Sequence record: GQ495225.1
Source of the DNA: Escherichia phage RES-2009a
Length of the DNA: 7,513 nt
Direction: 5' to 3' (one strand)
In this document: positions 60-7,433 of the stretch, piece after piece
Numbering within the stretch: the stretch's first letter is position 1
Layout: the number at the start of each line of letters is the position of its first letter
Program-made: the position numbers and the translations under genes
The notes under the pieces: model-generated
Told to the model about the DNA's origin: nothing
The model's database searches: none
What the model saw: only the letters and a program-made list of their open reading frames with translations

Positions 60-1640
60 ATGAGTGACGTTTTAGCCTGGGAGGAACTATCCCAATCAGA
101 GAAGCAAGCCATCAAACTTCTGTCTACGCATAACTTCGAAACATTCCTGCGAGTGTGGTTCTCCATCACTCAGGGGCAAAAGTATGTGTTGAACTGGCAT
201 CATAGATACCTATGCAGGATTGTTGATGAGATTATTAGCGGAGAGCGAAAGGATACAATCATAAACGTATCACCTGGCGCCGGTAAAACCGAGATCACAT
301 CAATTCACTTTCCAGTCTATAGCTACCTAAAGCTACCAAGGGTTCGCAACCTTAGCCTTTCATTCTCTGATAGTCTGGTTAAGCGAAACTCAAAGCGAGT
401 GAGGGACCTTATTAAATCAATGGAATTCCAGGAGCTATTCCCAAGCAAGTTCGGGACGTGTAAAGATGACGAGATTCAGGTGCTTGATGAATCAGGTAAG
501 GTTAGATTTGAGTCAATATCAAAGGCCATTGGAGGGCAAATAACCGGATCAAGGGGTGGTTACATCACGGACACTTATAGCGGCTGCATCATGCTCGATG
601 ACGTTGATAAAGTTGATGATATGTTTAGTAAAGTTAGACGTGAAGCGGTGCACATGCTCCTGAAGAACACGATACGCTCTCGTCGCGCAAGTTCGGTAAA
701 GGGAAAGGCAACACCAATTATTTCCATACAGCAGCGATTGCATGTTAACGATAGCTCCTGGTTCATGTCTGAATCTGGGGGTATGGGTATAGATTTCGAT
801 GTTGTGAAGATTCCAGCGATAGTTACTGAGGATTACATCGACACGCTTCCTGACTGGTTAAAACCACACTTTGAGGCCGACGTACTATCAGCTGAGTACA
901 TTGAGCGAGATGGCGTTAAATACTACAGCTACTACCCGCAGAAGGAATCCATTCATGATTTAATGGCTATGCAAGACGCAGACCCATATACGTTCCTTAG
1001 TCAATATCAGCAGGAGCCAGTAGCACTAGGTGGCAACCTGATCAACGTAGATTGGTTCCAGCGAATCAGTGATACGTTCAGACCTCCAGCTAAATACGAT
1101 TATAGATTCATAACTTGCGATACTGCGATGACAACAAAGAGTTATAGTGACTTCTCTGTACTTCAGTTGTGGGGGTATAAGGATGCTAAGATTTACCTGA
1201 TAGACCAGCGCAGGGGTAAATGGGAGGCTCCAGAATTAGAGGCTGAATTACTTGACTTCGAGAAGAAATCAAGGGCAACCAGTCAGTCAGATGGCATCCT
1301 CCGAAAGATCATTATCGAGAAGAAAGCCTCTGGTATCGGCCTGATTCAATCGGCAGGCAGGGTAATGCGAACTCCGATAGAGCCATACGTTCCGGATAAC
1401 GACAAGCTGACTCGCGTAATGAGCGCATTGCCACAGATCAAGGCTGGTAACGTCGTCCTTCCAGAGTCAGGGCCGTGGCTAAGCGGATTGCTTACTGAGG
1501 TTGCAGCCTTTACGGCAGATGACTCGCATAAGCACGATGACCAAATTGACTGTCTAACAATGGCGGTAAACCTTGTTCTCAATATCGCAGATGACCCCAA
1601 AGCCCGACTAATGCGCATAGCGGGAATTAAACAGCCGTGA
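60..1640 (+). CDS. Terminase large subunit (ATPase plus nuclease)
   Basis: 526-aa ORF with ATG at 60 and SD-like AAGAGGG 7 nt upstream. Walker A-like VSPGAGKTE (nt ~274-291), Walker B-like CIMLDDVD, and C-terminal acidic motifs (FITCDTA, HDDQIDC) consistent with an RNase H-like terminase nuclease. Sits directly upstream of a portal-sized gene. Confidence 0.88.
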   Translation: MSDVLAWEELSQSEKQAIKLLSTHNFETFLRVWFSITQGQKYVLNWHHRYLCRIVDEIISGERKDTIINVSPGAGKTEITSIHFPVYSYLKLPRVRNLSLSFSDSLVKRNSKRVRDLIKSMEFQELFPSKFGTCKDDEIQVLDESGKVRFESISKAIGGQITGSRGGYITDTYSGCIMLDDVDKVDDMFSKVRREAVHMLLKNTIRSRRASSVKGKATPIISIQQRLHVNDSSWFMSESGGMGIDFDVVKIPAIVTEDYIDTLPDWLKPHFEADVLSAEYIERDGVKYYSYYPQKESIHDLMAMQDADPYTFLSQYQQEPVALGGNLINVDWFQRISDTFRPPAKYDYRFITCDTAMTTKSYSDFSVLQLWGYKDAKIYLIDQRRGKWEAPELEAELLDFEKKSRATSQSDGILRKIIIEKKASGIGLIQSAGRVMRTPIEPYVPDNDKLTRVMSALPQIKAGNVVLPESGPWLSGLLTEVAAFTADDSHKHDDQIDCLTMAVNLVLNIADDPKARLMRIAGIKQP

Positions 1641-1647
1641 TAAACTA

Positions 1648-1670
1648 AGCCCCTACATGGGGCTTTTTTA
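1648..1670 (+). terminator. Rho-independent terminator-like hairpin between terminase and portal genes
   Basis: AGCCCC (1648-1653), loop TACAT, GGGGCT (1659-1664): perfect 6-bp GC-rich stem followed by TTTTTTA. It overlaps the portal RBS region, so it may be leaky or act as an RNA-stability element. Confidence 0.5.
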
Positions 1671-1682
1671 TTGGAGAAAAAC

Positions 1683-2951
1683 ATGGTCAAGACAGACAGC
1701 TACGCCAATATATTCCTAGGCGGCAGTGATGGTAGTGAGATTTACGGGAGCTTGCAGAATCAGGCACCGACAATTCTGGCTTCGCTTTATGCGGATAATG
1801 CGCTGGTGCGTCGAATCGTTGACACAGTCCCGGAAACAGCACTAGCGGCAGGGTTCCACATTGATGGCATTGATGATGAACCTGCATTCTGGTCGCGTTG
1901 GGATGATTTGGAAATGACGAAGAATATTAACGACGCTTGGGCATGGGCGAGATTATTCGGTGGTTCAGCCATTGTTGCTATCGTTAAGGACAATAGAGCG
2001 CTAACAAGTCCGGTCAGAGAAGGTGCTGAGCTTGAAACGGTTCGCGTTTACGACCGTACACAAGTAGAAGTACAAACTCGCGAGGAGAATCCACGTAACG
2101 CACGTTTTGGTAAGCCGTTAACCTATCGCATCACCACTAACGAAAGCGATATGTTCTATGACGTGCACTACAGCAGAATTCATATCATCGATGGCGAGCG
2201 AATCCCTAACGTAATGCGTCAACAGAATGACGGATGGGGCCGCAGCGTTCTATCCAGTGACATTCTTGACTCAATCAAGGATTACACCAACTGCGAACGA
2301 CTTGCTACGCAGTTACTGAAGCGCAAGCAGCAGGCGGTGTGGAAAGTCAAAGATCTGGCTGAGTTGTGTGACGATAGTGAGGGATTTGGTGCCGCAAGGT
2401 TGCGCCTAGCACAGGTTGATAACAATAGTGGCGTTGGTCAGGCGATTGGTATTGACGCGGAGTCTGAAGAGTACAGCGTTCTAAACTCTGATATTGGTGG
2501 TATTGATGCGTTCCTGGATAAGAAGTTTGACAGAATCGTTGCTCTGAGCGGTATTCATGAAATCATCCTGAAGAACAAGAACGTTGGTGGCGTGTCATCA
2601 AGCCAGAATACGGCACTGGAGACATTCCATAAGCTAGTTGACCGCAAGCGTAACTCAGAACTGCTGCCTATTCTTGAGTTCTTAATCCAGTTCATAGTTA
2701 ACGTTGACGAATGGTCGGTTGAGTTTAATCCCTTAGCTCAGGAATCAAGCAAGGACAAAGCGGAGATTCTGGAGAAGAACGTAAGCAGCATCGCGACGCT
2801 AATTGCATCTGGCGCTATGGATATTGATGAGGCTAGAGATACATTGCGTACAATCGCTCCAGAGGTTAAGATTAGTGACGGTTCAGTAGAGACAGAGGTG
2901 ACAATTAGTGAAACCAGTAACGACCCGCTGGAAGTATCCGCAGACAATTGA
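1683..2951 (+). CDS. Portal protein (putative)
   Basis: About 422 aa, immediately after the terminase and before a Mu F-like gene, which is the canonical position. The ORF-track start at 1671 is TTG; ATG at 1683 with GGAG at 1673-1676 (6-nt spacer) is the better start. Stop TGA at 2949-2951. Confidence 0.72.
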   Translation: MVKTDSYANIFLGGSDGSEIYGSLQNQAPTILASLYADNALVRRIVDTVPETALAAGFHIDGIDDEPAFWSRWDDLEMTKNINDAWAWARLFGGSAIVAIVKDNRALTSPVREGAELETVRVYDRTQVEVQTREENPRNARFGKPLTYRITTNESDMFYDVHYSRIHIIDGERIPNVMRQQNDGWGRSVLSSDILDSIKDYTNCERLATQLLKRKQQAVWKVKDLAELCDDSEGFGAARLRLAQVDNNSGVGQAIGIDAESEEYSVLNSDIGGIDAFLDKKFDRIVALSGIHEIILKNKNVGGVSSSQNTALETFHKLVDRKRNSELLPILEFLIQFIVNVDEWSVEFNPLAQESSKDKAEILEKNVSSIATLIASGAMDIDEARDTLRTIAPEVKISDGSVETEVTISETSNDPLEVSADN

Positions 2952-3636
2952 GAGCCAAGTTAACCGCAATCTCAGTATTGCGGTAACTGAGTTAATTTCA
3001 GCAATGAAGGAGTCAGCAACAAGGCTTAAAATTGATACTGCAGAGGAGCTGGAGGAGGAGGATGGATACCTTGACGGGATAATTGCGGCGCTGGTGGCTT
3101 CGTTTATATCTACAATCCCAGCCATAGGTGCAGCGATATACAGATACAATAGCTCACAATTTCTTGTGATTGCAATCAAAACTGGCGGTAGGTCAAAACC
3201 TAGCGTTCTAGACCTTGAAGTTAATGGCATCAATGGCGATGAGCCGTGGTATAATGATGACATTAATCAGTGGGTTTACACCACAAGCAAGTCAGCTATT
3301 AAATTGCTGAATAACATTAAAGATGACTTTATTCAAACGGCATCAACAGCACAGAATGGTGACTACGTTAAGTTATCAGGTAGGTACAAAACATACAGGA
3401 AGCGAACGGCAAACATCGCATCTGGGATTGTGTCAAGCCTAAACTCTACACTTATGAGGCGTAGGCTAGAGGATGCTGGCGTTAGCCGTTACATCTGGCA
3501 TGGTATGCTAGACGAAAGGGAGCGGCAATCACACATAGTAAGAGAAGGGCTTAGCTTTAAACTTGGTGGTAACGATATATTTCCAGGTCAAGAATACGGT
3601 TGCCGTTGCTGGTCGGTTCCAGATTGGGAATCATAA
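2908..3636 (+). CDS. Minor head / head morphogenesis protein, phage Mu F-like (SPP1 gp7-like) family
   Basis: C-terminal region WHGMLDERERQSHIVREGL...PGQEYGCRCWSVPDW matches the conserved W..DER.R..H......CRC signature I recall for Mu F-like proteins. GTG start at 2908 has a good SD (AGAGGTG, 8-nt spacer) and overlaps the portal gene by 44 nt. The alternative in-frame ATG at 3004 lacks an SD. Confidence 0.78.
   Translation: MKPVTTRWKYPQTIESQVNRNLSIAVTELISAMKESATRLKIDTAEELEEEDGYLDGIIAALVASFISTIPAIGAAIYRYNSSQFLVIAIKTGGRSKPSVLDLEVNGINGDEPWYNDDINQWVYTTSKSAIKLLNNIKDDFIQTASTAQNGDYVKLSGRYKTYRKRTANIASGIVSSLNSTLMRRRLEDAGVSRYIWHGMLDERERQSHIVREGLSFKLGGNDIFPGQEYGCRCWSVPDWES
3090..3097 (+). other. Chi octamer GCTGGTGG (RecBCD recombination hotspot motif)
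   Basis: Exact 8-mer on the + strand, inside the Mu F-like gene; it is not aligned to codon position 1, unlike the other two copies. Confidence 0.6.
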
Positions 3637-3648
3637 CAGGAGAATTAA

Positions 3649-4740
3649 ATGAGCAAAATCCGCTATGACAGCGCAAAAGTAAAAGCACGATTCGATGAGA
3701 ACGGATTTCTCGTCGACACGCCAGTAGTTGCTCGCGTGGGTGTTCAGACTTACATCACACCAGACGGCAAGGAGCGCCGCGAGTTTCGCCCAGCAAGAGA
3801 GGTATTTAAGGCTGAATCACTCGCAAGCTATCAGGGTAAGCCGGTGACCTTCGGGCATGTCACTGTCAACTCGGATAACGCCAGGGGCGTTGTTGTTGGT
3901 GCGGTTTCCGGATCAGGTGAGCGCAGTGATGCGGCAGTTGTTGTTCCGCTAACCATTTATGACAAAGAGGCTATCGAAGCGGCTAAGGCAGGTCGCGCTG
4001 GTGAGTTGTCGGTTGGCTACACGACCGAGGATGTTAACATAGCAGGTTGGGGTAGCAATGAAACTGGTGAATATAAGCTCGATGGTGAATATGAATCGCA
4101 AGATGACATCCCACCTGAGTGGGTTCGCTTTGATGCGCTACAAACCAACATTGTAGTTAATCATGTTGCACTGGTATATAAAGGTCGCGCAGGGGTAGCA
4201 AAGTTAAATTTTGACGCTCAACAGGAAAACCCGTATACTACTGACGTTGATATCAATAAAGAGGATAAACAGGAAATGACAGTTAAAATTAAACTCGACA
4301 GCGCGCAGGAATTTGAAGTCGCACCGGAAATCGCTTCTCACATCGAAGCACTGAACGCAAAGGCTGACACCGCAATCGCAGAGCGTGATGCACTGAAAGC
4401 TAAAGTACATGCAATGCCTGCTGAAATCGAGGCCGCAGTTGCTAAAGCGAAAGCTGATGCTGATGCCCTAGCTGCCCTGGTTGCTGTTGCTGCTGAAGCT
4501 GGTGTAAAAGCTGATGGCCTGGATGCTAAAGGCATTAAAGTTGCCTACGTTAAAGAAATCTCCGGCCTTGATGTTTCAGAGAAATCCGACGCTTACATCG
4601 ACGCAGCCTTCGACATTGCCAAAGAATCTGATAAAATGGCTGAAGTACGAAAAGCGACTACCGCTTACGACAGATCTGACAGCGCCGATGAGCCTAAGAA
4701 ATTAGACCCTCGCGCTCGTTTAGCTAAAATTAAGAAATAA
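3649..4740 (+). CDS. Scaffolding-type protein: N-terminal globular domain plus C-terminal Ala/Lys/Asp/Glu-rich predicted helical region (possible protease-scaffold fusion)
   Basis: 363 aa, ATG 3649 with AGGAGA 5 nt upstream. Located between the minor head protein and the capsid gene. The C-terminal half (from about nt 4270) is low-complexity and charged, e.g. AEIEAAVAKAKADADALAALVAVAAEAG, which is typical of scaffold coiled-coils. The N-terminal roughly 190 aa looks globular and resembles, from memory, an uncharacterised domain family found at this position in siphovirus head modules. Confidence 0.6.
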   Translation: MSKIRYDSAKVKARFDENGFLVDTPVVARVGVQTYITPDGKERREFRPAREVFKAESLASYQGKPVTFGHVTVNSDNARGVVVGAVSGSGERSDAAVVVPLTIYDKEAIEAAKAGRAGELSVGYTTEDVNIAGWGSNETGEYKLDGEYESQDDIPPEWVRFDALQTNIVVNHVALVYKGRAGVAKLNFDAQQENPYTTDVDINKEDKQEMTVKIKLDSAQEFEVAPEIASHIEALNAKADTAIAERDALKAKVHAMPAEIEAAVAKAKADADALAALVAVAAEAGVKADGLDAKGIKVAYVKEISGLDVSEKSDAYIDAAFDIAKESDKMAEVRKATTAYDRSDSADEPKKLDPRARLAKIKK

Positions 4741-4752
4741 GGAGTTATAAAC

Positions 4753-5226
4753 ATGGCAATTCGTTCCGTAGCACTGGCTGGTATGATTTCTGATACTTCG
4801 CTCCATAACATCGACGGCGCATGTGTGGTTGGCGGCGCAACGGCAATCCCTGTCGGCACTGTTGTTAAGTTTTCAACCGCTCAGCCTGTAGATGGGAATA
4901 AGATTGTGGAAGCAACTGGCCTAGTTACCGGTAATGCTCTTGGTGTAGTTGTTCGATCTCACTACGAGACTGCGGATGGAACTGCTCGCGTAAATGAAGC
5001 GGTTAACGTAATGACTCACGGTCGAATCTGGGTTCGCTCAAGCCTTACTTCTGCACCAACGTTTGGCGCCCCAGTTCTGGTATCTGCCACTGGATTGGTT
5101 GAAGATTCGGGTGCGGTTGACACTGGATGGACTTTTGCGGGTGGTTACATCAAAAACACTGGCACAGACCCGCAAGACCTTAGCGTAGATGGCGCGCTGG
5201 TTGAGGTTCAGGTTAAGCAAAAGTAA
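4753..5226 (+). CDS. Small structural protein, Gly/Val/Ala/Thr-rich (candidate capsid decoration / cement protein)
   Basis: 157 aa, ATG 4753 with AAGGAG 8 nt upstream overlapping the previous stop. Composition suggests a beta-rich protein. It lies immediately upstream of the major capsid gene and is followed by a strong terminator. Function is inferred from position and composition only. Confidence 0.55.
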   Translation: MAIRSVALAGMISDTSLHNIDGACVVGGATAIPVGTVVKFSTAQPVDGNKIVEATGLVTGNALGVVVRSHYETADGTARVNEAVNVMTHGRIWVRSSLTSAPTFGAPVLVSATGLVEDSGAVDTGWTFAGGYIKNTGTDPQDLSVDGALVEVQVKQK

Positions 5227-5244
5227 ATCCTAAAGCTAAATTAA

Positions 5245-5267
5245 AGCCTCCTTCGGGAGGTTTTTTT
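5245..5267 (+). terminator. Rho-independent terminator (UUCG tetraloop)
   Basis: CCTCC (5247-5251), loop TTCG (5252-5255), GGAGG (5256-5260), extendable by flanking A-T pairs, then T7 run 5261-5267. Starts 19 nt after the stop of the 157-aa gene. Confidence 0.75.
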
Positions 5268-5273
5268 ATACCA

Positions 5274-5301
5274 TTGCGTGGGCTAAAAACTCGTGTATAA
5301 T
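5274..5301 (+). promoter_or_regulatory. Sigma70-like promoter candidate upstream of the major capsid gene
   Basis: -35 TTGCGT (5274-5279), 16-bp spacer, consensus -10 TATAAT (5296-5301). Predicted start about 5308, giving a roughly 32-nt leader with AAGGA at 5325-5329 before ATG 5340. Confidence 0.5.
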
Positions 5302-5339
5302 GAATCCGTAGACACCTAACTGAAAAGGAACAATAAAGA

Positions 5340-6284
5340 ATGGCCATTAAATTTGATGCAGAACAAGCAAAAATCACTGCTCACCTAGAGCAAATGGGCG
5401 TAGATAAGGCTGATGCCGCTGGTATCTGGACCGTTAGCCAGCTTACCGCTTCTCTGAAGCGTGCTTACGAAAAAGAATATTCAGACAACTCCGTTGTTAA
5501 TATCTTCCCTGTAACCAATGAAATCCCTGGTCACGCGAAGTATTTCGAATACCCAGAGTTTGATGGTGTTGGAATTGCTCAGATTATCGCTGATTACTCT
5601 GACGACCTGCCGCTGGTTGATGCCTTCATGACTGAGAAGCAAGGTAAAGTGTTCCGTTTCGGTAACGCATTCCTGATCTCCACTGATGAAATTAAAGCAG
5701 GCGCAGCTACTGGTCAGTCACTGTCGACTCGCAAACAGGCCCTGGCTTTCGAAGCACACGACAACCTGCTGGATAAACTGGTTTGGTCCGGTTCCTCTCC
5801 GCACGGTATCGTAAGCGTATTCGATCAGCCGAACATCAACAACGTTGTTGCCACTCCAAACTGGAGCGTCCCGCAGAACGCGATTGATGACGTCACTGCG
5901 ATGATTGATGCGGTTGAGAGCTCAACTCAGGGCCTACATCATGTAACTGACATTCTGCTTCCGGCTTCCGCTCGTCGAGTAATGCAGGGACTGGTTCCGC
6001 AGACAAACCTGAGTTACGGCGAATTGTTCACTCGTAACAACCCGGGTCTGACTATTCGCTTTATGCAGATCCTGGATAACTACGATGGCGCTGGTGGTAA
6101 AGCCGCTCTGGCGTTTGAGAAGAGTCCACTCAATATGTCTATCGAGATTCCGGAAGCTACTAACGTTCTTCCGGCTCAACCTCGAGATCTGCATTTCCGC
6201 TACCCTGTAACATCAAAGGCTACGGGATTGATTGTATATCGCCCTCTTACGATGGCTGCAATCAAAGGCATCACCTTCGCGTGA
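5340..6284 (+). CDS. Major capsid protein (putative)
   Basis: 314 aa, size appropriate for a capsid protein, and follows the scaffold and small structural genes. It has its own promoter candidate and SD and is followed by a strong terminator, a layout consistent with a highly expressed structural gene. Sequence identity was not verified by search. Confidence 0.72.
   Translation: MAIKFDAEQAKITAHLEQMGVDKADAAGIWTVSQLTASLKRAYEKEYSDNSVVNIFPVTNEIPGHAKYFEYPEFDGVGIAQIIADYSDDLPLVDAFMTEKQGKVFRFGNAFLISTDEIKAGAATGQSLSTRKQALAFEAHDNLLDKLVWSGSSPHGIVSVFDQPNINNVVATPNWSVPQNAIDDVTAMIDAVESSTQGLHHVTDILLPASARRVMQGLVPQTNLSYGELFTRNNPGLTIRFMQILDNYDGAGGKAALAFEKSPLNMSIEIPEATNVLPAQPRDLHFRYPVTSKATGLIVYRPLTMAAIKGITFA
6090..6097 (+). 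other. Chi octamer GCTGGTGG
   Basis: Exact 8-mer on the + strand inside the capsid gene, encoding Ala-Gly-Gly in frame. Confidence 0.6.
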
Positions 6285-6290
6285 TAAATC

Positions 6291-6312
6291 GCCCTCTTCG
6301 GAGGGCTTTTTT
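6291..6312 (+). terminator. Rho-independent terminator (UUCG tetraloop)
   Basis: GCCCTC (6291-6296), loop TTCG (6297-6300), GAGGGC (6301-6306), then T6 run 6307-6312. Starts 7 nt after the capsid gene stop (TGA 6282-6284, followed by TAA). Confidence 0.8.
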
Positions 6313-6317
6313 ACGTC

Positions 6318-6346
6318 TGTACCAAATGGATTTGTTGGGTTATAAT
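6318..6346 (+). promoter_or_regulatory. Possible weak sigma70 promoter upstream of the 81-aa gene
   Basis: Consensus -10 TATAAT at 6341-6346, but only a poor -35 candidate (TGTACC at 6318-6323 with 17-bp spacer). No TG extended -10. Confidence 0.3.
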
Positions 6347-6376
6347 CACTCAATCAGATAAACAAAGGAGATAAAA

Positions 6377-6622
6377 ATGATTCGTTTAGAACACACTGGC
6401 GCTTGCCTTATCGTTTACAAAGGTGATAAATATTTGCCTGGTGACACTTTCGAGGTTGATGTAATTTGCGACGGGCTCAAGCGTTTAATCGCAGAGGGTA
6501 AACTCACGATTGAGGGTGACACCAAAGCAACCAAACAGATCGCGCAGGAAATTGTTAGCAAGAAAAAGCGCAAAGAACCGAAAACCATCTCCGAAGCTGA
6601 GATTGGCAACGAGTACAAATAA
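6377..6622 (+). CDS. Hypothetical small protein, 81 aa, Lys-rich C-terminus
   Basis: ATG 6377 with AAGGAG (6365-6370) and a 6-nt spacer. No recognisable motif. Bracketed by hairpin terminators on both sides with a TATAAT box upstream. Confidence 0.65.
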   Translation: MIRLEHTGACLIVYKGDKYLPGDTFEVDVICDGLKRLIAEGKLTIEGDTKATKQIAQEIVSKKKRKEPKTISEAEIGNEYK

Positions 6623-6628
6623 CAAACA

Positions 6629-6650
6629 GGGCGCTTCGGCGTCCTTTATT
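6629..6650 (+). terminator. Terminator-like hairpin (UUCG tetraloop, weak U-tract)
   Basis: GGGCGC (6629-6634), loop TTCG (6635-6638), GCGTCC (6639-6644): 6-bp stem with one G-U pair, followed by TTTATT. The weaker T-run suggests partial termination or an RNA-stabilising hairpin. Confidence 0.45.
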
Positions 6651-6663
6651 GTATGGAGCTAAT

Positions 6664-7065
6664 ATGAATGATGCAATTTTGGCGTTTATGCGCTCGCTTG
6701 TTCCGGCGCTCAAAGCGGTGGATGACGAATCAATTAATGTATGGATTGATTTGGCACGTCTATACGTATGCGAAAGCAAATTTGGTGCAGACAAAGACAA
6801 GGCTGTCGGGCTTTATGCGCTACACCTGATGCTTGCTGATGGCGCATTTAAGGGTGAGAATGAAGGCCTGGAAACATACAGCCGTAGAATGGCAAGTTAT
6901 GCACTGAGCGGTGAATTCTCTATAACCTATGATAACCAATCAGCAATCCAGGGTGATTTATCATCTTCCTCCTGGGGTCGCATGTACAAGGCGCTTCTCC
7001 GCAAGAAAGGTGGCGGCTTTGGATTGATTACTTCCGCTGGTGGCGGTGGGTGCGGTTGCCGATGA
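6664..7065 (+). CDS. Putative head-tail adaptor / head completion protein
   Basis: 133 aa. The ORF-track start at 6649 is TTG; ATG at 6664 with TGGAG (6654-6658) and a 5-nt spacer is preferred. Size and position (first neck-type gene after the capsid gene) fit a connector, but the sequence is not confidently recognised. Unusual Gly-rich C-terminus GGGFGLITSAGGGGCGCR. Confidence 0.5.
   Translation: MNDAILAFMRSLVPALKAVDDESINVWIDLARLYVCESKFGADKDKAVGLYALHLMLADGAFKGENEGLETYSRRMASYALSGEFSITYDNQSAIQGDLSSSSWGRMYKALLRKKGGGFGLITSAGGGGCGCR
7036..7043 (+). other. Chi octamer GCTGGTGG
   Basis: Exact 8-mer on the + strand near the 3' end of the 133-aa gene, encoding Ala-Gly-Gly in frame. Confidence 0.6.
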
Positions 7066-7433
7066 ACTACAACGAAATCGAATCAATTACTCGCGCTGGC
7101 ATTAACTTCTTTAGTGATGCCAATGGCGTTTACGAGATGAGCACTGGCGCTGGATATGTTGAAATCGTTAACGGCGTTGAAGTGGAAGTGCCAGCGCAAA
7201 CATTCCAGCTAAAAGGATTGGTGCGAGAAATCAAGACGCGCGATATCGATGGCGAGTTTATCCAGTTTGGCGATAAGCGCGGAATCTTCACGGCTCAGAT
7301 TGAAATCAGGCAGGGTTATCAGATTAAAGTCGATGGTGAGACTTTTGTTGTTATTGACCCGCGGCCCGTTAAACCAACCGGAACAGTTGTTGGGTATAGA
7401 CCGATTCTTCGTAGGGTGGCTACTTATGGCTAG
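7062..7433 (+). CDS. Putative head closure / neck protein
   Basis: About 123 aa from ATG 7062, which overlaps the upstream stop as ATGA (a translational-coupling arrangement). In-frame GTG 7050 and TTG 7056 are alternative starts. Composition suggests a beta-rich small protein; function is inferred from position after the adaptor-like gene. Confidence 0.5.
   Translation: MNYNEIESITRAGINFFSDANGVYEMSTGAGYVEIVNGVEVEVPAQTFQLKGLVREIKTRDIDGEFIQFGDKRGIFTAQIEIRQGYQIKVDGETFVVIDPRPVKPTGTVVGYRPILRRVATYG

Follow-up and report, generated by a model that had tools for sequence, protein, structure and literature searches.

In a T1-like siphophage (Drexlerviridae, Braunvirinae) the module of head genes carries several short GC-rich hairpins with the same UUCG loop, and the question raised by this locus is what these structures do. 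The window, by which we mean the whole stretch of 7,513 nucleotides analysed from Escherichia phage RES-2009a (GQ495225.1), shares 86-92% identity with Rtp, BEK2 and vB_EcoS phages and comes from a distinct isolate. An extra gene that lies between the terminase and portal genes in BEK2 and Rtp is absent from it. The hairpins are most probably rho-independent (intrinsic) terminators which stop the host RNA polymerase and so split the late head-gene region into expression units, a reading to which we assign a probability of about 0.85. The paper on the T1-like phage TLS found no gene for an RNA polymerase or sigma factor in that phage and expects transcription by the host enzyme.

Anatomy of the hairpins and of the promoter-like elements

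The three GC stems with a TTCG loop described in the initial annotation are real; they were read directly from the sequence (T1, T2 and T3, Table 1) and were also picked up by a consensus scan. Their earlier coordinates were right to within 1-2 nt and had the T tails counted in, and the hairpin with a 5-nt loop that had been noted behind the terminase gene is T0, with the loop UACAU. All four hairpins lie on the coding (+) strand, 6-17 nt past a stop codon, and are followed by a T run or a T-rich tail. The loop-proximal stems have 5-7 pairs, 4-5 of them G-C, beneath loops of 4 nt (T1-T3) or 5 nt (T0), and all three UUCG loops of the window are closed by a C-G pair, giving the extra-stable C(UUCG)G form. 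A GC-rich stem, a loop of 3-8 nt, a U run and a position at the gene end in the direction of transcription are the defining features of intrinsic terminators, and these hairpins have them, the U run being weak in T3.

Table 1. Genes, hairpins and promoter-like elements discussed in the text, numbered from the first nucleotide of the window.
Feature	Coordinates	Strand	Location or evidence
Terminase large subunit gene	60..1640	+	ORF; Pfam Terminase_6C; annotated homologues in BEK2, Rtp
T0 hairpin AAGCCCC[UACAU]GGGGCUU, 5-nt loop	1647-1665; feature 1647..1669	+	After terminase stop
Capsid cement/decoration protein gene	4753..5226	+	Pfam Phage_cement, 1e-25
T1 hairpin AAAGCCUCC[UUCG]GGAGGUUUU	5243-5264; feature 5243..5267	+	17 nt past cement-gene stop
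Promoter-like element, capsid gene	5274..5301	+	Read from sequence; putative function
Major capsid protein gene	5340..6284	+	Pfam Major_capside, 2.9e-34; homologues annotated major head protein
T2 hairpin GCCCUC[UUCG]GAGGGC, 6 pairs	6291-6306; feature 6291..6312	+	7 nt past capsid-gene stop
Second promoter-like element, DUF7444 gene	6318..6346	+	Conservation; putative function
Small DUF7444 gene	6377..6622	+	Pfam DUF7444, 7e-19; homologue of Rtp gene 28, T1 gp46
T3 hairpin AGGGCGC[UUCG]GCGUCCU	6628-6645; feature 6628..6654	+	6 nt past DUF7444 stop

The hairpins differ in their tails and in what adjoins them. T1 pairs as AAAG-CCUCC[UUCG]GGAGG-UUUU, with a core of five G-C pairs (5247-5260) to which one G.U and three A-U pairs are added, and its tail is U7 (5261-5267). 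T2 is followed by U6 (6307-6312). The stem of T3 has seven pairs, one of them G.U, and its U tract is interrupted (UUAUUGUAU) and weak as a U run (UUUAUUGUAU), U occupying five of the first eight tail positions; it adjoins the Shine-Dalgarno sequence (SD; GGAG, 6655-6658) of the DUF4054 gene, whose ATG is at 6664. T0, which comes after the terminase stop codon, has a U6 run at 1664-1669 and adjoins the SD of the portal gene (GGAG, 1673-1676; ATG, 1683).

The folding energies whose calculation had been proposed in the initial annotation came to -12.3 (T1), -12.2 (T2), -11.6 (T3) and -12.7 kcal/mol (T0), with z-scores against shuffled sequences of -3.75, -3.53, -3.34 and -2.58, respectively. When nascent RNA was folded (100 nt upstream plus the hairpin), each of the four was present in the minimum free energy structure with a closing-pair probability of at least 0.994.

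TATAAT boxes follow T1 and T2. In front of the capsid gene TTGCGT (5274-5279) and TATAAT (5296-5301) are separated by a 16-nt spacer, the latter 38 nt before the ATG, and 8 relatives have this stretch unchanged, also when an insertion of 12 nt separates it from T1. The second element has TATAAT at 6341-6346, 30 nt before the DUF7444 gene, and a weak -35 region, TGTACC (6318-6323); TATAAT together with ACGTCTGTAC is invariant in 10 relatives, a divergent one among them. A consensus promoter scan of the window reported neither TATAAT site. The -35 hexamers match at three of six positions, which is why the capsid-gene box was missed. It is conservation that marks both boxes as putative promoter-like elements.

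Proposed roles in termination and mRNA stability

The proposed mechanism begins after the stop codon, where the polymerase would make a short C-rich arm, UUCG and a G-rich arm, and then the U tract. With its C(UUCG)G cap the 5-7-pair stem would fold rapidly into a stable form in the RNA exit channel, and the hairpin together with the weak rU:dA hybrid would release the transcript. The major capsid gene is flanked by T1 and the promoter-like element on its 5' side and by T2 on its 3' side. The U6-7 tracts of T1 and T2 are perfect and each is followed by a conserved promoter-like TATAAT box, so that the capsid gene would stand in its own promoter-gene-terminator cassette and might reach an expression level far higher than that of the genes around it. 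T0 and T3 would act as attenuators that step expression down while part of the polymerases pass. They touch the next ribosome-binding site and leave no room for a promoter, so partial read-through is expected at both; T0, which abuts the portal-gene SD, would have to be leaky, and T3, which abuts the SD and ATG of the DUF4054 gene, would likewise be a weak or leaky terminator. The interrupted U tract of T3 fits an attenuator role, and there may be little termination at this site. A literature search for Drexlerviridae yielded neither transcriptome data nor mapped 3' ends.

Among the functions listed for the hairpins in the initial annotation, termination is supported by their anatomy and nothing was found pointing to processing sites. 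Transcripts that end at the hairpins would carry a compact 3' hairpin, probably slowing 3'-to-5' exonucleases, and 3'-end protection is a plausible by-product.

Protection would weigh more if the main role of the hairpins were to stabilise mRNA at its 3' end or between cistrons, like the CUUCGG intergenic hairpins of T4, by stopping 3' exonucleases, or to mark ends left by processing, with little termination. This is improbable for the set and applies most to T3, with its interrupted U tract and its position directly on the ribosome-binding site of the next gene. T1 and T2, however, have their perfect U tracts directly after the stem, and a T tail is needless for a pure stability element, yet T-rich tails follow nearly all CUUCGG-capped stems of the related genomes (8/8 in BEK2 compared with 2/11 in the host sample). 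Termination and stability roles are compatible and not exclusive.

Conservation in related phages

Terminators are expected to keep their place and structure while their sequence changes, and this is what was found at the end of the capsid gene. A terminator-like hairpin with a T tail lies just after this gene in 80 of 80 related loci, against a background of 0.028 per equal-sized window within the gene, and it is formed by many stems that differ between clades. Positional presence relative to background was used as the measure of conservation because T2 stems are too different for column alignment and the T3 stem hardly varies. At the capsid-end terminator UUCG occurs in 46 of the 80 loci, on at least five unrelated stems.

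Closer relatives retain the hairpins themselves. T1, T2 and T3 are identical in sequence to their BEK2 counterparts, T1 is also identical in Rtp and is invariant in 8 relatives, and hairpins homologous to T0 occur in BEK2 (3133-3149) and Rtp (8878-8894). The T3 stem, GGGCGC/GCGYCC, is kept family-wide beneath loops of UUCG (31), UACG (16) and others, including UUAU in Rtp and UUAG in AKS96. T2 has the loop UCAG in one relative, and loops at the same sites in relatives are also UUCU or UUUG. The UUCG loop is preferred and not required, since relatives carry UUAU, UUAG or UCAG at corresponding sites.

The constancy of the T3 stem would be explained if T3 were bound by a protein or recognised by an RNase, for instance as a translational operator of the downstream DUF4054 head-tail gene. 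The stem persists between subfamilies that share only ~50% identity in their capsid proteins, a range over which the T2 stem changes freely, and 9 nt separate the hairpin from the SD downstream. However, the loop, which is the usual contact surface, varies (UUCG, UACG, UUAU, UUAG, UAAU, and 3- and 5-nt loops), the third stem pair is G.U, A-U or G-C, which fits plain structure, the analysis yielded no candidate binding protein, and a near-identical hairpin, GGGCGC[UUCG]GCGCCC, is the E. coli tufA terminator. A recognition site at T3 is therefore very unlikely.

The shared UUCG loop is a non-random feature. The window has three UUCG hairpins (stem of at least 5 bp with at least 4 GC, TTCG loop), all on the + strand, while 2000 dinucleotide shuffles yielded a mean of 0.008 and a maximum of 1. 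CTTCGG occurs five times in the window on both strands together; three of these hexamers cap such a stem, and all three stems have a T-rich tail. In nine related genomes TTCG loops outnumber CGAA loops 42 to 3 behind co-directional genes, CGAA is common (19) solely among wrong-orientation hairpins, and the same orientation rule holds for the minus-strand genes of relatives. Selection for RNA structure rather than chance palindromes, as had been suggested for this locus, is supported by the shuffles, the TTCG strand bias, the 80 conserved loci and the unrelated stems that share UUCG. Short GC-rich palindromes do arise randomly, at about three any-loop tetraloop hairpins per shuffled window, but DNA-level palindromes or chance inverted repeats without RNA function are effectively refuted by the excess of TTCG-capped stems over expectation, by a loop and T tract that are strand-specific and track gene direction in both orientations in related genomes, and by a place directly after stop codons that is kept in every related locus.

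The possibility that the three hairpins are copies of one repeat was rejected because their stems (CCUCC, GCCCUC and GGGCGC) differ. REP- or BIME-like elements do not match them either, as the stems differ, all have T tails and all are at gene ends. An Rfam E-value scan of the whole window gave nothing at the hairpins and two weak, irrelevant matches elsewhere, and a search of the window for the TLS-type repeat ATAGCACnnnTTGnTAAA gave just three near-matches in coding regions, which is chance level.

UUCG terminators in phages, the host and published systems

The genome-scale scan for UUCG terminators called for by the initial annotation found UUCG to be the commonest terminator loop in nine whole related phage genomes (42 of 160 terminators, with 12-22 terminators per genome), and 41 of the 42 have a C-G closing pair. 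In Braunvirinae genomes it accounts for 20-38% of terminators, on stems of 5-7 pairs, whereas in a 200-kb E. coli sample it is rare (1 of 33) and terminator stems are long (10.9 pairs). Core pairs number 5.4 in UUCG terminators, the shortest class, compared with 6.1-6.6 in other phage terminators and 8.6 in the host. Counted per site, UUCG is significantly enriched over the host (8/21 versus 1/33, p=0.0013); after collapse to distinct stems it is not (9/88 versus 1/33, p=0.28), and because of the latter we claim no proven phage-specific excess.

Nearest-neighbour parameters place C(UUCG)G, for which experimental stability is reported in the literature, only 62nd of 256 tetraloops, ~0.4 kcal/mol above average stability. 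Modelled stability alone does not explain the choice of UUCG over UACG or UCCG. The energy threshold of the scanner was rejected as the source of the TTCG excess because this advantage is so small. It is conceivable, though doubtful, that T1-like phages have taken up a terminator design of their own, a minimal one made of a 5-6 bp GC stem with C(UUCG)G and several-fold commoner than in the host. In it the cap would make up for the shortness of the stem, and U tracts of unequal quality (T1 and T2 versus T3) would grade read-through and head-protein stoichiometry. The sites would then be a compact and tunable set of natural parts and not generic terminators.

The result matters little beyond annotation, where its contribution is a proposed transcription layout for the head module. 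This layout, a capsid cassette plus two leaky terminators at downstream ribosome-binding sites, predicts relative expression levels. It may interest those concerned with compact-terminator design or phage gene dosage, as stems are shorter and UUCG caps far more frequent than in the host sample under the same scan. The stabilisation of short terminator hairpins by UUCG caps is an established principle. A UUCG cap improved a riboswitch terminator (PMC3905868) and was part of a redesign that raised the efficiency of the T7 terminator by 40%, the native T7 terminator being described as adapted to be inefficient (PMC9157156).

The closest published counterpart is phage AKS96 (NC_024789), in which TransTermHP and WebGeSTer were used to annotate rho-independent terminators at three corresponding sites (6314-6338, 8307-8329 and 8648-8671). 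These are in the same places, after the cement, major capsid and DUF7444 genes, and have the same anatomy of hairpin and U tract. T1-like phages are reported to have 18-21 rho-independent terminators each (PMC4070988), and a 'transcripton' organisation, in which a module is flanked by terminators and has its own sigma-70 promoter, has been described for phage T1. The promoter-like elements found here have a perfect TATAAT 38 nt (capsid) or 30 nt (DUF7444) before the start and a -35 match of only 3/6. We see nothing material that separates the hairpins of the window from the terminators annotated in T1-like phages or its proposed layout from the T1 transcripton. The UUCG hairpins are not special to the window, published relatives carrying the same ones.

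In phage T7 the major capsid gene (gene 10) lies in a cassette between the phi10 promoter and the T-phi terminator, and T-phi by design stops transcription only in part, which leaves the later genes transcribed. The likeness is that the major capsid gene has a dedicated promoter in front of it and a hairpin terminator behind it. However, T7 is transcribed by an RNA polymerase of its own and has a terminator with a long stem and a 6-nt loop, whereas the window phage would use the host sigma-70 polymerase and minimal UUCG hairpins, and the two layouts are analogous, not homologous. C(UUCG)G hairpins were described in phage intergenic regions and E. coli terminators by Tuerk et al. in 1988 and d'Aubenton Carafa et al. 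in 1990, as cited in PMC8948821 and PMC3972237. Those hairpins likewise have UUCG, a C-G closing pair and an intergenic position and are linked to rho-independent termination, and the tufA terminator is the one host example found here. UUCG-capped terminators are a design feature of phages and bacteria already known since 1988-1990.

Hairpins at gene ends in the head-gene module

The + strand of the window encodes nine genes, all co-directional as judged from open reading frames and Pfam matches, and the window shares 86-92% identity with Escherichia phages Rtp, BEK2, AugustePiccard and the vB_EcoS/Veterinaerplatzvirus group, which are T1-like siphophages (Drexlerviridae, Braunvirinae). The Mu F-like ORF, with GTG at 2908 as its putative start, runs in a different frame over the last 44 nt of the portal gene (2908-2951), and the BEK2 annotation has the identical overlap (4394-4437).

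Genes, hairpins and promoter-like elements of the window
Feature	Position	Strand	Details
Terminase large subunit gene	60-1640	+	Pfam
T0	stem 1647-1665	+	AAGCCCC[UACAU]GGGGCUU; U run 1664-1669
Portal gene	1683-2951	+	Pfam
Mu F-like head morphogenesis gene	2908-3636	+	Pfam
DUF2213 gene (protease/scaffold)	3649-4740	+	Pfam
Capsid cement protein gene	4753-5226	+	Pfam Phage_cement
T1	stem 5243-5264	+	AAAGCCUCC[UUCG]GGAGGUUUU; U7 tail 5261-5267
Promoter-like element after T1	5274-5301	+	TTGCGT-16 nt-TATAAT
Major capsid protein gene	5340-6284	+	Pfam Major_capside
T2	stem 6291-6306	+	GCCCUC[UUCG]GAGGGC; U6 tail 6307-6312
Promoter-like element after T2	TATAAT 6341-6346	+	conserved in relatives
DUF7444 gene	6377-6622	+	Pfam DUF7444
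T3	stem 6628-6645	+	AGGGCGC[UUCG]GCGUCCU; tail UUAUUGUAU
DUF4054 gene	6664-7065	+	Pfam DUF4054
ORF without Pfam match	7050-7433	+	

Hairpins T0-T3 begin 6-17 nt after a stop codon, and their description in the initial annotation was borne out to within 1-2 nt by direct reading of the sequence and a consensus scan. The folding energies, which that annotation proposed to calculate, are -11.6 to -12.7 kcal/mol (z-scores -2.6 to -3.75), and in nascent-RNA context the closing-pair probability is >=0.994 for each hairpin. T1, T2 and T3 are identical in sequence to those of BEK2, and an Rfam scan of the window gave no match at T0-T3. Two more + strand hairpins with T-containing tails, found by our own scanner and the consensus scan, lie in the DUF2213 gene at 3874-3894 (GATAACGCC[AGG]GGCGTTGTT) and 4110-4123 (CCCAC[CTGA]GTGGG); given their poor tails and their position within coding sequence, they are probably chance matches.

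The three UUCG hairpins exceed chance. In 2000 dinucleotide-preserving shuffles of the window, TTCG hairpins with >=5 pairs and >=4 G-C pairs numbered 0.008 per shuffle on average and 1 at most, against 3 in the window, all on the coding strand. T1-T3 are not copies of one repeat, since their stem sequences differ.

Recurrence of the UUCG loop in related phages

The window itself being just 7.5 kb, the genome-wide scan proposed in the initial annotation was run on nine complete related genomes with a single home-made scanner (perfect stem >=5 pairs with >=4 G-C, loop 3-8 nt, T-rich tail, dG <=-9, <=60 nt behind the end of a co-directional ORF). This gave 12-22 candidates per genome; published T1-like phage annotation has 18-21 rho-independent terminators (PMC4070988). 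Tetraloops make up 116 of the 160 candidates, and TTCG is the most frequent loop (42/160), followed by GAAA (13) and TTTC (9). By genome its share is 8/21 in BEK2, 8/22 in AugustePiccard, 6/18 in vB_EcoS-12469II, 5/19 in AKS96 and 4/20 in Rtp. The closing pair is C-G in 41 of the 42 TTCG candidates, and the loop tracks the direction of transcription, since CGAA, its reverse complement, was counted 3 times in the co-directional class versus 19 times among wrong-orientation matches. Between 33 and 60% of CTTCGG hexamers in the related genomes cap a stem, and from 5/8 to 8/8 of these, depending on the genome, have a T-rich tail; in 200 kb of E. coli K-12 only 11 of 117 cap a stem, two with a T tail.

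IMG/VR supplied 80 loci with a capsid-protein homologue (50-96% protein identity), and in every one a terminator-like hairpin lies <=21 nt past the capsid-gene stop, against a background inside the capsid gene of 0.028 hairpins per equal-sized window. Its stem differs by clade (GCCCTC, AGCACCC, AAAGCGCC, AATGGCCC, GGGGAATCC, AGGGAACC and others), and its loop is TTCG in 46/80 loci, spread over at least five stems. Upstream of the capsid gene TTCG is found in 39 of 55 hairpin-bearing loci, and at the third site, homologous to T3, in 31/71, with TACG in 16/71, both being UNCG loops. The TTCG loop is dispensable at homologous sites: the T3 loop is TTAT in Rtp and TTAG in AKS96, the T2 loop is TCAG in one relative, and the single-base variants TTCT and TTTG are also seen among relatives. 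The recurrence reported in the initial annotation is confirmed, and its reading as selection for RNA structure is supported by the shuffles (0.008 versus 3), the loop orientation and the position conserved in 80/80 loci.

The T3 stem GGGCGC/GCGYCC (window 6628-6645) is kept at the third site between Drexlerviridae subfamilies that share only ~50% identity in their capsid proteins, whereas the T3 loop varies and the adjoining T2 stem changes freely. The E. coli tufA terminator is nearly the same hairpin, AAAAGGGCGC[UUCG]GCGCCCUUUUU (K-12 segment L095, 40094-40121, - strand). This likeness is probably convergence.

Gene content varies among relatives at the terminator-bearing junctions (window 1641-1682, 5227-5339 and 6285-6376; BEK2 2728-3111; Rtp 8500-8856; AKS96 6392-7276; AugustePiccard 6244-9049; and, with phiEB49/Sd1, L011 2559-3083 and L012 2577-3167). 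BEK2 and Rtp have an additional gene between terminase and portal, absent from the window; in AKS96 and AugustePiccard the T1 homologue and the capsid gene are separated by one or two additional genes, and in phiEB49 and Sd1 an HNH endonuclease gene lies directly 3' of the capsid-gene terminator.

An 18-nt repeat, ATAGCACnnnTTGnTAAA, has 21 copies in BEK2 versus 0.58 expected (504-521, 2649-2666, 10502-10519, 21741-21758, 39956-39973 and 16 more). It frequently adjoins a terminator, and upstream of several BEK2 genes it lies 22 nt ahead of a perfect TATAAT. It matches the 21-nt direct repeat of the T1-like phage TLS, to which no role was assigned (PMC11447400). The head module is without the repeat, and no copy was found in the window.

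Compact stems in phage and host terminators

With the same scanner, stems have 7.3-8.0 pairs in phage terminators and 10.9 in host ones, so the phage forms are systematically more compact. Tetraloops account for 72% of phage candidates (~7-8 pairs, nine genomes) and 42% of host candidates (~11 pairs, 200 kb of K-12). Within the phage set, stems are shortest in the UUCG terminators (means of 5.4 for core pairs and 4.6 for G-C pairs; the others have 6.1-6.6 core pairs), which is consistent with a UUCG cap making a minimal stem workable. Engineering work agrees with this: a riboswitch terminator performed better with a UUCG cap (PMC3905868), and redesign of the T7 terminator by a UUCG cap and G-U to G-C changes together raised its efficiency by 40% (PMC9157156). 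In the nearest-neighbour model C(UUCG)G is just ~0.4 kcal/mol better than the mean tetraloop; the TTCG excess is therefore no product of the scanner's energy filter, and modelled stability fails to account for the preference.

UUCG was found in 1 of 33 host candidates (E. coli, 200 kb). Per site the contrast is significant (BEK2 8/21, p=0.0013; pooled 42/160, p=0.002), but collapsed to distinct stems it is not (9/88 versus 1/33, p=0.28), and since the nine genomes have homologous sites in common there are few independent UUCG events.

Proposed graded transcription and known systems

From the sequence, graded transcription is the most likely function of the hairpin layout. The capsid gene would form a high-output cassette, with T1 and a promoter on one side and T2 on the other, and T0 and T3 would act as attenuators lowering expression stepwise. 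The 50-nt stretch holding the element after T1 is invariant in eight relatives, also where 12 extra nt separate it from the terminator, and the TATAAT after T2 is invariant in ten together with the preceding ACGTCTGTAC. Both are named promoter-like only, because their -35 regions are weak and a consensus promoter scan of the window reported neither TATAAT. The tails of T0 and T3 abut the Shine-Dalgarno of the next gene (GGAG 1673-1676 and 6655-6658), leaving no room for a promoter, so that the portal and head-completion genes would be reached solely by read-through; the interrupted U tract of T3 is compatible with a leaky terminator. Among the functions listed in the initial annotation (termination, 3'-end protection, processing), the anatomy favours termination, while the compact hairpin may plausibly also protect the 3' end. 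The TLS paper reports neither a phage polymerase nor a sigma gene in that T1-like phage and expects the host to transcribe it (PMC11447400).

UUCG terminator hairpins are already known, and everything here falls within known categories. UUCG and GAAA tetraloops are described as features of rho-independent terminators in two papers (PMC8948821, PMC3972237) quoting Tuerk et al. 1988 and d'Aubenton Carafa et al. 1990. The corresponding terminators of related phages already carry annotation: the AKS96 GenBank record lists all three hairpins as rho-independent terminators, on TransTermHP and WebGeSTer predictions. The sole mildly new point, a quantitative one and statistically not yet secured, is the short-stem, UUCG-rich terminator style of T1-like phages relative to the host sample. 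In T7 the capsid gene, gene 10, lies between the phi10 promoter and the T-phi terminator, and the arrangement proposed here, in which a promoter precedes the capsid gene and a leaky terminator follows it, is analogous. T-phi is described as inefficient (PMC9157156).
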